The position numbers and the translations under genes were made by a program. From positions 1 to 33,321 of the forward strand of contig PXUB01000011.1 of the NCBI GenBank assembly GCA_003009755.1: a DNA stretch of 33,321 bases, written 5' to 3'. The notes beneath the pieces are model-generated. The model did not search any database, was not told the origin of the DNA, and saw only the letters and a program-made list of their open reading frames with translations. Origin of the DNA: Thermoplasmatales archaeon SW_10_69_26. Lineage in GTDB: Archaea > Thermoplasmatota > SW-10-69-26. Positions 17,256-33,321 of the stretch are shown piece by piece; position 1 is the first letter of the stretch, and every line of letters starts with the position of its first letter.

Positions 17256-17382
17256 GCCCCGACTCAGCGTGCTCCGGTTCCGTCTGCAGATATAAAGGCT
17301 TTGCCGAGCGAACCTTGCAACGACCCGCCCTTCGACCGGGTCCGGCCGGGCTCCTTTGTACCAGCGGGGCGCTTGGTCGGGC

Positions 17383-18249
17383 GTGCTCGTCGCAGGGTCC
17401 ACCGCCTTCGACACGCTGGCCCGCGTCGAACGGTTCCCCACCGAGGAGGAGGCCATGAAGGCCGACGAGATCGCCTCCGGTGCCGGCGGCTGCGGCGCCA
17501 ACGTCGCCCGCGGGCTGGCCCGCCTGGGCCACGAGCCGCGGCTTCTGTCGGCCGTCGGAGCGGATTTCGCCGATAGTTCGGCCAAGCAGGCTCTCGAGGG
17601 CGACGGCGTGGATCTGGGACGGCTGGTGCGTGTCGAGGACGAGCCGACGGCCGCGGCGATGATGGCCACCGACGACACCCTCCAGCAGACGATCATCTAC
17701 GACGAAGGGGCCACGCCCCGCATGCGCGAGCTCGAGCCGATCGAGGCCGAGCTGGGCCACTTCGCGCCCGGCGAGGTAACCGCCTACCCCGAGCTGATGG
17801 CCGCGGTCGACCGCGTCGTCTACGATCCCGGCCAAGAGGTCTTCTACCGCCCCACCGAGGAGGTGATGGCACCCCTGGACGAGGTCGACGTGCTCGTCGT
17901 GAACGAGCACGAGGCCGAACAGCTGGCCCCCGCCGTCGGCGGGCTCGAGACGCTGGCTGACGAGCTCGAGGGCCTGGTCGTCACGCACCAGGGAGGCCAG
18001 CACGTCTACCAGAGCGGCGACCGTGTCGAGCTGGACGCCGTGGAGGCCGACGTCGTGGATCCCACCGGCGCCGGGGACGCCCACTGCGCGGGCCTGGTGC
18101 ACGGGCTCGCCGAGGGTTGGCAGCTGCCCGAGGCCTGCCGGTTCGGGAGCGTGGTGGCCGCCTGCGCGATCGAGAGCGTCGGCGCTCAGCGCGGCCTGCC
18201 GACGCGCGACGAAGCCCAGGCGCGGCTCCCAGGTGCCAAGAAGACCTGA
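17383..18249 (+). CDS. PfkB/ribokinase family carbohydrate or nucleoside kinase
   Basis: GGCGANVARGLARLG, VGAD, YDPG, VNEHE and DPTGAGDAH motifs. Start uncertain (17356 or 17383). Confidence 0.93.
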   Translation: MLVAGSTAFDTLARVERFPTEEEAMKADEIASGAGGCGANVARGLARLGHEPRLLSAVGADFADSSAKQALEGDGVDLGRLVRVEDEPTAAAMMATDDTLQQTIIYDEGATPRMRELEPIEAELGHFAPGEVTAYPELMAAVDRVVYDPGQEVFYRPTEEVMAPLDEVDVLVVNEHEAEQLAPAVGGLETLADELEGLVVTHQGGQHVYQSGDRVELDAVEADVVDPTGAGDAHCAGLVHGLAEGWQLPEACRFGSVVAACAIESVGAQRGLPTRDEAQARLPGAKKT

Positions 18250-18260
18250 GGCTCGCCACC

Positions 18261-18784
18261 TAGCCTGCCGGACGTTATCTGCTCAAGTCTCGCCGCCCTC
18301 AGAGGTTCGAAGGCGCGGAGCGGGACCGAAGGTCTGCCCGGATCAAAGATCCGGGCTCTCCCGAGGATCCGCCCTGCGGGCAGGGATCCTCGGGACTTGC
18401 CCCGAAGGGCAAGTCGAGGGATTCGCGACAACGCCTGCCACAGGGCCAACCGCGGAAACGACGTCATCGGGCGTCCGAGCAAGCCCCCCTTGTGTGGGGC
18501 TTGCGAGCTGTACGAGCCGCCCCGGGCGGCTCGTGCTTGTGAGGTCGGCCTCGCGGAGAGGCGCAGCACGGATCGACGATCCGTACGCGCCACAGACGGC
18601 CGGTGGCCGTCTCTGGCGCCGGCGTGAGGCGCCCCATCTCGTTGTCGCGCCCGGAGATCTCGCCCGAGGGCGATCTCCGGCGCGTCCGAACCCCCTGTGG
18701 GACGGCCGGAGCCTCGTCGGCGTTCGCCGTCTTGGAGCTGCTCGCCGAGGGGTCCGAGGGCCCTCGCCCGTGGCCGTCGGCGGG
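18261..18784. ncRNA. Large, highly structured non-coding element of unknown family (copy 1); structured RNA or ssDNA element
   Basis: About ten hairpins (e.g. 18336-18356, 18359-18395, 18394-18415, 18479-18504, 18510-18536, 18568-18584, 18589-18617, 18651-18680). Long-range helices 18424-18433/18640-18649 (perfect 10 bp) and 18296-18317/18681-18701. No credible ORF. Homologous blocks recur from 33152. Confidence 0.6.
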
Positions 18785-18790
18785 AACACC

Positions 18791-18796
18791 TTTAAG
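18791..18796 (+). promoter_or_regulatory. TATA-like box upstream of aRF1
   Basis: TTTAAG immediately after the structured element, about 100 nt upstream of the aRF1 ATG. Confidence 0.55.
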
Positions 18797-18893
18797 GGGC
18801 TCCACATTCAGGAGGAGATGGATGCCCTGCGTCCGTCGCCGTCCCCGTTGACGAGCGGCCCGGGCCAGGGACGCCACCTTCTGGGGGTCCTGC

Positions 18894-20147
18894 ATGGCCA
18901 GCGACGAAGAGCAGAGCGAGCAACGTGCCCGCTACGAGTTCAAACGCATCCTCGAGGACCTCGAGGGCGTCCGGGGCAGAGGCACGGAGCTCGTGTCCCT
19001 GTACGTGACCCCGGACAAGAACCTCAACGACGTCCGCAACCAGATCTCCAGCGAGATCGGCGAGGCCCAGAACATCAAGTCTAAGTCCACGCGCAAGAAC
19101 GTGACCTCGGCGCTCGAGGTCATCGAGGGCGCGCTCAAGAACTACAAGCAGACGCCCGAGAACGGGCTCGTGTTCCTCGTCGGCCACAAGTCCGCCAAGG
19201 GCGATACAACCGAGATGGTCCGCCACGTCCTCGAGCCGCCCCAACCCGTGCCGGTCAACCTCTACCGCTGCGACAACACCTTCCACCTCGACCCGCTGGC
19301 GGGCATGATCGAGGACGCCGACGCCTACGGGCTCGTCGTCATCGACCGCTCGGAGGCCTCGATCGGGGTCTTGCGAGGCGAGCACGTCGAGACGCTGCGC
19401 CACACCCAGTCGATGGTCCCCAGCAAGCACACCGCCGGCGGGCAATCGCAGCAACGCTTCGAGCGCCTGATCGAGGAGGCCGCTCAAACCTACTTCCGAG
19501 ACGTCGCCGAGCAGGTCAACGAGCTGCTGTGGACCCGACGCGACAAGGAGATCCAAGGCCTGCTTGTCGGGGGCCCCGGCCACACGAAGGACGAGTGGCT
19601 GAAGACCGGCGAGCTCCACCACGAGCTCGAGAAGAAGCTCGTCGACACCTTCGACACCGGGTACGCCGACGAGTACGGGCTCAGCGAGCTCGTCGACCAG
19701 GCCCACGACACGCTCGAACAGCGAGGCCTGACGCGCGAGAAGGACCTCGTGGACGAGTTCCTCGCCGAGGTCCGCCAGGAGGGCGGCAAGTTCAGCTACG
19801 GGGAGGACCAGGTCCGCAAGCGCCTGCGGATGGGCGCCGTCGAGACGCTGTTGCTCTCCGAGTCCCTGCGACGCATCCGGGCCGACCTCGTCTGCCCCGA
19901 GTGCGAGCACCGGTTCCAGCGCACCACCGACGAACCCGATCAGTTCCGTCCCTCGCCCGCCGCCTGTCCCGAGTGCGGCGAGGAAGCCGAGATCGAGGCG
20001 GAGACCGACGTCGTGGCCGAGCTCACCGAGCTGGCCGACCAGCGAGGCACCGACGTCGAGCTGATCAGCGAGCAAAGCGAACAGGGCCAGATGCTCGTCA
20101 ACGCGTTCGGCGGCGTGGCCGCGATCCTTCGCTTCCGCATCAGCTGA
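18894..20147 (+). CDS. prf1: Peptide chain release factor aRF1 (eRF1 family)
   Basis: GRGTELVSLY, NIKS, YRCDNTF and GGQSQQRFER motifs; C-terminal CPEC..CPEC zinc-ribbon insert; FGGVAAILRF. Confidence 0.98.
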   Translation: MASDEEQSEQRARYEFKRILEDLEGVRGRGTELVSLYVTPDKNLNDVRNQISSEIGEAQNIKSKSTRKNVTSALEVIEGALKNYKQTPENGLVFLVGHKSAKGDTTEMVRHVLEPPQPVPVNLYRCDNTFHLDPLAGMIEDADAYGLVVIDRSEASIGVLRGEHVETLRHTQSMVPSKHTAGGQSQQRFERLIEEAAQTYFRDVAEQVNELLWTRRDKEIQGLLVGGPGHTKDEWLKTGELHHELEKKLVDTFDTGYADEYGLSELVDQAHDTLEQRGLTREKDLVDEFLAEVRQEGGKFSYGEDQVRKRLRMGAVETLLLSESLRRIRADLVCPECEHRFQRTTDEPDQFRPSPAACPECGEEAEIEAETDVVAELTELADQRGTDVELISEQSEQGQMLVNAFGGVAAILRFRIS

Positions 20148-33151: not shown

Positions 33152-33321
33152 TAGACTGCCGGACGTGTTTTGCTTACGCTCTCGCGCCGGTCTCGGGAGA
33201 CCGGGCACGGTCTGCCGAGAGGACGAGCCCGGAGGGCTCGTGCGAATGAGCGAGGCAAGGTCGCGGAGCCCGAGGAAGGAAACCCCGAAAATTTCCGACC
33301 CTCCGGTGGTTGCAGGCCCGC
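33152..33321. ncRNA. Second, diverged copy of the structured non-coding element, probably truncated by the window end
   Basis: TAGACTGCCGGACGT is 14/15 identical to 18261-18275. Followed by TGCT..TCTCGC, GACC..GGTCTGCC and ACGAGCC-loop-GGCTCGTGC..TGAG..GGC..TCGCGGAG in the same order as copy 1; hairpin CCGGTCT-CGGG-AGACCGG. Confidence 0.55.

Follow-up and report, generated by a model that had tools for sequence, protein, structure and literature searches.

The hairpin-rich gap between pfkB and aRF1 of a halite-dwelling Thermoplasmatota archaeon: very probably a copy of an IS630-type MITE

In the genome of Thermoplasmatales archaeon SW_10_69_26, a 644-nt gap separates the gene of a pfkB-family sugar kinase from that of the archaeal peptide-chain release factor 1 (aRF1). 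The gap is part of a stretch of 33,321 nt (contig PXUB01000011.1), referred to here as the window. A sequence-only reading had marked positions 18261-18784 as an array of hairpins within a nested long-range fold and proposed a folded nucleic acid that belongs to no known class. What kind of element is it, and where does it end? According to our analysis, positions 18261-18700 are very probably one copy of an IS630-type miniature inverted-repeat transposable element (MITE), that is, of a non-autonomous DNA transposon. The stretch belongs to a multi-copy family with terminal inverted repeats, shares its termini with an IS630-type insertion sequence (IS) and is absent from the site in a related population, which assigns it to a known class. 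The ordered, uncatalogued pairing was thus real, and only the idea of a new class has to be given up: the nested long-range fold would be the pairing of the two inverted arms of the element, and the hairpin array a set of palindrome cassettes.

A multi-copy family with the ends of an IS630-type element

With the gap as query, the host assembly (2.82 Mb in 49 contigs, 69% GC, 95% complete) returned 70 matches on many contigs. About 25 copies cover positions 18255-18345 and 10-15 cover 18612-18700, with 18430-18540 forming a segment unique in this genome. The terminus TAGACTGCCGG was matched 119 times when at most one mismatch was allowed, and 100 termini remained after filtering on the downstream TCTCGC block. 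Of these, 52 face each other in 26 pairs that span 83-1345 bp (25 of them 83-672 bp), and 48 are unpaired. The 1345-bp pair holds another open reading frame (ORF): at C36:10814-12158 a family copy is split by about 1 kb with an ORF of 246 aa, which by eye we take to resemble an IS6/IS240-type transposase and which would represent a nested insertion. As to the unpaired termini, 25 point towards a contig end within 700 nt, and the other 23 are internal one-ended copies, among them the one in the window. Family matches lie within 300 nt of 30 of the 98 contig ends, so that the true copy number must exceed the assembled count. Contigs from four halite-metagenome runs (X1-X4) were also placed on the window; their depth over the element in X1 ranges from several-fold to about 16-fold that of the flanks.

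Twenty-four pairs could be oriented, leaving out the 83-bp pair at C32:8127 and the 1345-bp C36 pair with its foreign ORF. One L-type and one R-type end were present in 23 of the 24, which gives the element a polarity. Family members carry TA-GACTGCCGG at both ends and consist of two homologous, inverted arms of about 115 nt; nearly all termini begin and end with TA. Thirty arms could be aligned over 105 columns with a mean column identity of 81%, and the order of their parts is terminus, CTCTCGC, a CCTCAGG/GTCTGAG block, a GGAGCC...GAAGG block, a hairpin slot and TCGA..GGCGACAACG. The perfect 10-bp long-range helix of the window copy is the left-arm GGCGACAACG block paired with its inverted right-arm counterpart, and the outer helix is arm-against-arm pairing as well. 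Minimal copies of 101 bp are just two arm stubs, from which longer ones differ by whole cassettes inserted at fixed slots. The centre of longer copies has further blocks complementary to each arm, hence alternative, mutually exclusive helices exist.

The assembly also contains a candidate parent. On contig C32 (89545-90676), an IS of 1132 bp is flanked by TA and has TAGACTGCCGG at both ends. Its ORF1 encodes HTH_33 (E 1.9e-20) and HTH_32 domains (Pfam), while ORF2, in the -1 frame, encodes DDE_3 (E 9.3e-23); the NCBIfam IS630 profile is matched by ORF1 over positions 9-133 (96.6 bits) and by ORF2 over 146-293 (89.5 bits). The two ORFs overlap in the -1 frame at a run of seven A residues (A7), a typical slippery sequence, where programmed frameshifting may join them. 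Of 40 terminal positions, 24-32 match between the ends of the IS and those of the MITEs, as compared to 28 between the two ends of the IS itself. This locus is the only one with DDE_3 in the assembly, and the MITE family would be derived from it and presumably be moved by it in trans.

A mosaic of palindromes in intergenic DNA, with a variable number of hairpin modules, would also be expected of a REP/BIME-like repeat or of an IS200/IS605-derived element (a PATE, or an end bearing an omega-RNA), moved by a Y1 transposase or linked to TnpB. No match to the Y1 transposase (PF01797) or to the TnpB zinc-ribbon domain (PF07282) was obtained in the 95%-complete assembly, with control genomes positive for both, which removes the other usual sources of palindromic repeats. 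Furthermore, the family has terminal inverted repeats and TA flanks as found in the IS630 element, neither of which IS200/IS605 elements are known to have. An origin of this kind is very improbable.

The copy between pfkB and aRF1

The pfkB gene (17356-18249, plus strand; Pfam PfkB, E 9.4e-45) ends with a TGA stop at 18247-18249, and the MITE copy (18261-18700, left-to-right orientation on the plus strand) begins 12 nt after this stop. A TA dinucleotide at 18261-18262 forms the left junction and is the presumed IS630-type target, nearly all family termini reading TA-G. The left terminal inverted repeat (18261-18295, plus strand) is of the subtype listed as 'L2' in our terminus catalogue and reads TAGCCTGCCGG...CTCGCC; positions 18260-18340 are 96% identical to C14:19422-19501 and C18:3873-3953. 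The whole left arm, homologous to the right arms of the family and inverted relative to them in the alignment of 30 arms, extends over 18261-18433 (plus strand) and holds the 5' sides of both the outer helix and the 10-bp helix (18424-18433, a left-arm block that recurs in other copies). The inner part of a right arm (18590-18700, plus strand) is 97% identical to C35:19132-19242 and contains the 3' side of the 10-bp helix (18640-18649), the hairpin 18651-18680 and the 3' side of the outer helix.

Beyond this point the copy is incomplete as assembled. Family homology stops near 18700-18705, and the left terminus is present at 18261, with no right terminus within one mismatch. When right-arm likeness was sought in the tail (18700-18790) by local alignment, 132 of 200 shuffles scored as high as the real sequence. 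Having lost its outer right arm in the assembled form, the window copy is probably immobile.

The extent of the element also follows from a contig of run X4 (260 nt, depth 2.6), in which 18263 is joined to 18701 with two letters (GC) between them. The flanks of this joint measure 137 and 115 nt and contain 0 and 2 other letters, respectively; it was seen in this one contig from one of the four runs. The element therefore spans 18261/18264-18700, and positions 18701-18785, retained in the contig and not related to the family, are a spacer outside it. With its single TA at the left junction, the contig represents an allele that lacks the element, i.e. the locus shows presence/absence polymorphism. 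The unit of 18261-18784 that the sequence-only reading had delimited is accordingly too long, the actual one ending at 18700 by both family homology and the contig joint. Its possible terminal helix (18264-18274/18775-18784) does not appear in the minimum free energy (MFE) fold; with homology ending near 18700-18705, a tail unlike right arms and the joint from 18263 to 18701, the right strand of this helix falls outside the element.

All five genomes of the host's own family that were compared share the pfkB-aRF1 synteny, and the element is absent from the gap in each. In two of them (G002 and G003), pfkB and aRF1 lie only about 140-150 nt apart and the pfkB stop lies 20-35 nt from a conserved ACACCTTTA(A/T) box. 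A BRE/TATA-like box, ACACCTTTAAGGG, is located at 18788-18800 (plus strand) of the window, and the same motif is found about 100 nt before aRF1 in 5/5 relatives; it is probably the promoter of aRF1, native to the locus and not supplied by the element. The simplest reading of these data is an insertion at a TA followed by loss of the outer right arm and a few flank bases. The insertion would have occurred between the pfkB stop and the native aRF1 promoter, with the TA presumably being the duplicated target, and the inserted copy would have no dedicated function for the host.

The aRF1 gene itself (18894-20147, plus strand; Pfam eRF1_1/2/3) has its best named relatives at 44-49% identity. In the other three syntenic genomes (G001, G004 and G005), unrelated small ORFs occupy the gap. 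G001 and G004 encode an acidic protein of about 90 aa there, and the product in G005 is rich in Cys and has a signal-like N-terminus. This site is an insertion hot spot. All six genomes share the ACACCTTTA box about 100 nt upstream of aRF1 and a leader with a small conserved hairpin. For this leader (18786-18893), 11 pairs are predicted, four of them changed on both sides, with a consensus energy of -6.8; it may be a weak 5'-leader element. A second family copy, of right-arm type and carrying slot-D hairpins, extends to the last position of the window (33152-33321, plus strand), where contig C11 ends as well.

Palindromes, cassettes and the question of a selected fold

All ten local hairpins described by the sequence-only reading are present. 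A repeat search returned perfect arms of 12 nt (18359-18370/18384-18395), 11 nt (18512-18522/18524-18534) and 9 nt (18394-18402/18407-18415, 18479-18487/18496-18504 and 18651-18659/18672-18680) as well as arms of 15 nt with 93% identity (18587-18601/18605-18619), and the hairpins 18324-18334, 18336-18356, 18548-18562 and 18568-18584 were read in the sequence and are drawn in the MFE folds. The 10-bp helix 18424-18433/18640-18649 is perfect by the same search, and the outer helix appears in the RNA MFE fold as a pairing of about 18292-18317 with 18681-18705. That the pairing is not random was borne out by comparison with dinucleotide shuffles. Folding of the 644-nt gap gave a z-score (z) of -5.3 on each strand (20 shuffles each). 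For 18261-18700 alone, z was -6.5 on the plus and -7.35 on the minus strand with RNA parameters, and -8.15 with DNA parameters, with none of 100 shuffles folding as well. Two 440-nt coding controls had z of -0.7 and +0.4, and the tail plus leader (18701-18893) had z of -1.9 (5 of 100 shuffles as good).

Catalogued RNAs had been declared absent, and they were: Rfam gave no match in the window at the gathering score, and neither tRNAs nor regular direct repeats were found. A permissive Rfam search of 18150-18950 yielded only chance-level matches (E at least 0.25; best 20.1 bits against a threshold of 70), and there was none for seven family copies and the IS locus. ARAGORN detected no tRNA or tmRNA in 18150-18950; its whole-genome calls with introns allowed (74, of which 38 with introns, many above 1 kb) were treated as unreliable in this GC-rich DNA. 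Group II introns as well as RNase P and SRP RNA were rejected in the light of the Rfam result. The only direct repeats are five two-copy families of 11-17 nt with irregular spacing, which does not make a CRISPR array, and reading of the sequence for a replication origin revealed no AT-rich unwinding region and no repeated origin boxes. A protein-coding stretch was rejected in view of indels between copies of 64, 55, 58, 278 and 437 nt, none a multiple of three, and all five ORFs that cross the gap lack a Pfam match at E up to 0.1. In sum, nothing that the sequence-only reading had itself named as speaking against its proposal was found.

What remains of that proposal is a single-copy structured RNA gene, or a riboswitch-like leader, peculiar to the pfkB-aRF1 gap. 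It would draw on the fold statistics and on the unique centre (18430-18540) only, but the sequence is multi-copy, missing from the site in X4 and from the gap in 5/5 relatives, and without Rfam match, and the unique centre is an optional cassette that is skipped in 4/4 runs. This explanation can practically be dismissed.

The cassettes become apparent from contigs that skip parts of the window copy. All four runs contain the joint from 18336 to 18401, which leaves out a 64-nt cassette with two palindromes (18337-18400; palindromes 18336-18356 and 18359-18395), and, separately, the joint from 18476 to 18541, which leaves out a central 64-nt cassette with the hairpins 18479-18504 and 18510-18536 (18477-18540); the latter is the only part without another match in the own genome. 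Skips of 18560-18614, 18564-18621 and 18341-18618 were seen in single runs. The first two (joints 18559 to 18615 in X1 and 18563 to 18622 in X3) concern two more optional hairpins, 18568-18584 and 18589-18617 (together 18568-18617), which recur in the C35 copy along with extra nested hairpins, placed there beside a hairpin that is intact in the window. The skipping contigs represent copies of the family, between which entire hairpins are present or missing. Within the assembly, the copies at C14:19422 and on C18, with left arms 96% identical to that of the window copy, are without its first two hairpins, and the copies on C41 and at C14:16713 have the 18337-18400 cassette, in C41 with a compensated change in the second hairpin. 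The hairpin 18394-18415, by comparison, is the canonical one of the arm slot, found at the same position in 30 arms with compensatory variants.

Such whole-hairpin boundaries would also result if the short palindromes, in particular those of the GGATC-N3-GATCC kind, were independent tiny mobile or templated insertions that settle in non-coding DNA, MITEs among it, and the array had grown by accretion of foreign hairpins instead of shrinking from a long master copy. There are 50 GGATC-N3-GATCC hairpins in the genome, inside as well as outside family loci, and similar ones in the relatives G003 and G005, both of which have no MITE arms; moreover, the extra hairpins of C35 lie within the loop side of a hairpin that is intact in the window. 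Against this speaks that no consistent target duplication accompanies the cassettes (flanking repeats are 3-6 nt by eye) and that no Y1/RAYT or TnpB enzyme was found. The genome contains 337 perfect hairpins (stem of at least 9, loop of 3-8) where about 175 are expected by chance from block shuffles, and only 41 of the 337 are in family loci. We consider independent insertion a minor possibility, though one worth keeping in mind.

Two further hairpin-rich loci were noticed in the assembly. At C6:200-620, a repeat unit with GGATC-GAA-GATCC hairpins, unrelated to the MITE arms, occurs in two copies about 260 nt apart. At C1:123180-124020, a tRNA-Ser(UGA) (Rfam tRNA, 63.7 bits) is preceded by three or four repeats of its own 5' portion, with hairpins and an inverted copy of this portion behind each. 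Downstream, a tRNA-like 3' part is broken up by inserts that carry hairpins. This array could represent integration scars, tRNA-derived foldback repeats or multi-intron genes.

Pairing within the family is conserved to a degree that calls for comment. Of the cells of the arm hairpin (7 pairs in 30 arms), 91.3% are paired, as compared to 70.0% in shuffles, a value reached by 0 of 500, although related sequences can beat every shuffle in this test; slid controls attained at most 57.8%. Five of the seven pairs have changed on both sides, and the changed cells are 49 two-sided and 1 one-sided. For 10 full elements, two of them from a second genus, RNAalifold predicted 71 pairs, of which 17 show two-sided changes. 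One of these sits in the terminal repeat (G-C in eight elements, U-A in two), where a matching change is also expected from one transposase that recognises both ends. No robust covariation was obtained for the 10-bp helix: by reading, the window variant is compensated and the same right-arm variant in C35 is not.

If the fold were used as RNA, one strand should be favoured. In 22 oriented elements, in which about 72% of the bases are paired, the two strands have nearly equal numbers of G·U pairs (170 and 165). The strand energy difference has a mean of +2.2 (sd 8.8), with the L-to-R strand being the more stable one in 10 of 22. This lack of strand preference speaks against a single-strand RNA gene. 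Palindromes can be kept perfect by intrastrand template switching in quasi-palindromes. Given perfect stems, few one-sided intermediates and strand symmetry, upkeep of the palindromes at the DNA level fits better than RNA selection: the stems would be kept perfect by template switching and whole hairpins would be lost by slippage. A selected ssDNA fold, or a function that involves both strands, would also be compatible with these data.

The genomic setting of the family was analysed with stop-to-stop ORFs, filtered on third-position GC content (GC3), as crude stand-ins for genes; the set of 26 elements comprised 24 pairs, the window copy and the IS. By these rough calls, 25 of the 26 do not overlap an ORF, and their contexts are tandem (11), convergent (10) and divergent (3), with one element at a contig edge and one overlapping an ORF. 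At 15 of 52 element ends, again by rough ORF calls, the abutting ORF stops exactly at the terminal TAG, which suggests that insertions survive in the TA of stop codons by restoring a stop. At C2:21913-22264 and C14:7756-7856, convergent ORFs end in the terminal TAG at both ends of the element.

These features would suit a MITE family that has also acquired a selected function, either as a portable 3'-end module or through a single-stranded DNA (ssDNA) or RNA fold for transposition or its control. In the 3'-end version, the terminal TAG would serve as stop, and the hairpins together with the T-run of the right arm would terminate or stabilise transcripts. Support comes from compensatory changes that keep hairpins and internal helices paired across copies and two genera, from the 15 TAG-restoring ends and the 10 elements between convergent genes, and from the position of the window copy close behind the pfkB stop. 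However, a one-strand RNA should favour G·U pairs on one strand and no strand asymmetry is seen, gene contexts are mixed, near-identical copies gain or lose whole hairpins, and the matching change in the terminal repeats has the transposase explanation given above; the ORF calls, finally, are crude. A selected function on top of the MITE anatomy is thus decidedly unlikely in our view. A broader form of this idea starts from the multi-helix architecture, maintained through compensatory changes in different subfamilies and two genera, and from the palindrome cassettes exchanged at fixed slots. The fold would then be under selection, either as an ssDNA or RNA structure required for IS630-type transposition or its control, or as a mobile 3' end that inserts at the TA of stop codons, re-creates TAG there and contributes a terminating or stabilising structure. 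The GATC mini-palindromes would be a separate insertion unit of these halophilic Thermoplasmatota, of a kind not yet described. We rate this combination as unlikely.

Distribution and comparison with known elements

With the window gap as query, arms were matched in none of 30 relatives. With a full element as query, one of 20 other genomes of the class gave matches, namely G002, which represents a different genus of the same family. It has two full copies of 403 and 398 bp (L071:812-1214 and L073:1207-1604), which carry TAGACTTCCGG as the terminus on either side and share the order of modules; a matching G-to-T/C-to-A change is present in both terminal repeats, and internal helices show compensated differences. 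No close homologue of the transposase was detected in the 20 other genomes, two of which have homologues at 30-36% identity. The stretch was found in halite metagenomes. A scan of JGI metagenomes with 29 bases of the right flank gave no match, and one with the terminus plus CTCTCGC pattern gave 12 matches, none with family arms, which with 18 specified bases may be due to chance. Three JGI contigs of about 42% GC (L088, L092 and L093) read TA plus GACTGCCGG ... CTCTCGC; these sites may be the ends of other IS630-type elements or chance matches.

Several points weigh against the assignment of the window copy to an IS630-type MITE. The copy itself has no right terminal repeat and, taken alone, shows only half of what defines a MITE. 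No contig piece listed for the four runs crosses 18700/18701 in the window form: in X1 the depth at this bin is fully explained by two contigs that stop or start there, an X1 contig with the exact window letters over 18605-18700 continues as the C35 copy after 18700, and the right-flank contigs of X1, X2 and X3 have 46, 30 and 49 unplaced letters left of 18701. Evidence for the truncation is hence confined to the assembly, and the locus in X1-X3 may carry a different, perhaps complete, right end. An empty site was not seen for any of the two-ended copies, so that the TA is no more than a presumed target duplication. The only transposase is split over two frames, which could mean frameshifting or a dead gene, and in G002 (an 89%-complete assembly) no related transposase was found in spite of its two full copies. 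It has to be added that the BLAST count obtained with the elements as queries (105 family-like intervals, 20.2 kb, 0.72% of the genome) includes short, possibly spurious matches. Finally, structural conservation goes beyond the needs of a decaying transposon and may stem from a selected fold. MITE anatomy accounts for everything except the compensated, conserved fold and the turnover of cassettes.

The assignment to the MITEs removes a false lead, as the gap holds no new RNA class, and documents a high-copy MITE family with a single IS630-type parent in an uncultured, halite-dwelling lineage of Thermoplasmatota. About a third of the breaks in the assembly can be put down to the family, given that 30 of 98 contig ends have a match to it. 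Insertion polymorphism at strain level could be used to track populations, and the cassettes offer a compact natural system in which to follow the gain, loss and continued pairing of perfect palindromes within a DNA transposon. Should proper gene calls confirm the pattern of restored stop codons, this would reveal by what route a TA-targeting element persists in a genome of 69% GC.

Several known systems share part of these features. Correia elements of Neisseria are TA-flanked inverted repeats of about 100-155 bp that lie beside genes, form stable hairpins when transcribed and have RNase III and IHF features. TA flanks, inverted repeats and hairpins are thus shared with the family described here, but Correia elements are bacterial, smaller and without hairpin cassettes. 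BOX elements of Streptococcus pneumoniae and the BIME/REP sequences of enterobacteria are intergenic repeats of modular build, with hairpin modules that vary in number from copy to copy, REPs being tied to RAYT (Y1). They resemble the present family in their variable hairpin modules and differ in lacking IS630-type termini with TA flanks; for REP/BIME, the RAYT (Y1) transposase is a further difference, as it was not found in the 95%-complete assembly. Stowaway MITEs and Tc1/mariner elements of the inverted-repeat/direct-repeat (IR/DR) type, both from eukaryotes, have a TA target and long inverted arms. They belong to the same IS630/Tc1/mariner superfamily and differ by their eukaryotic hosts; moreover, no repeated transposase-binding sites were identified within the arms of the family reported here.

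The closest relations are to be sought among prokaryotic MITEs. Our full-text literature search retrieved no paper on MITEs of halite Thermoplasmatota, although supplementary tables of surveys may list the family. A survey of archaeal MITEs gives 18,091 of them in 1,015 archaeal genomes and cites those of Sulfolobus (bioRxiv 10.1101/2024.01.18.576219). With archaeal MITEs in general, the present family has in common that they are non-autonomous derivatives of insertion sequences. IS630 is listed among the IS families of archaea, including Thermoplasmatota, and is grouped with Tc1/mariner (PMC13343696). The best match is with prokaryotic MITEs derived from IS630, such as MITEEc1, named as an IS630-type MITE in ISfinder (bioRxiv 10.1101/2024.01.18.576219): like these, the family is short, non-coding and multi-copy, shares its termini with an IS630-family IS and has TA at both junctions. 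It is set apart by its uncultured halite Thermoplasmatota host, its arms of about 115 nt, its arm-complementary centre and its palindrome cassettes, and by an architecture that has been kept in a second genus.

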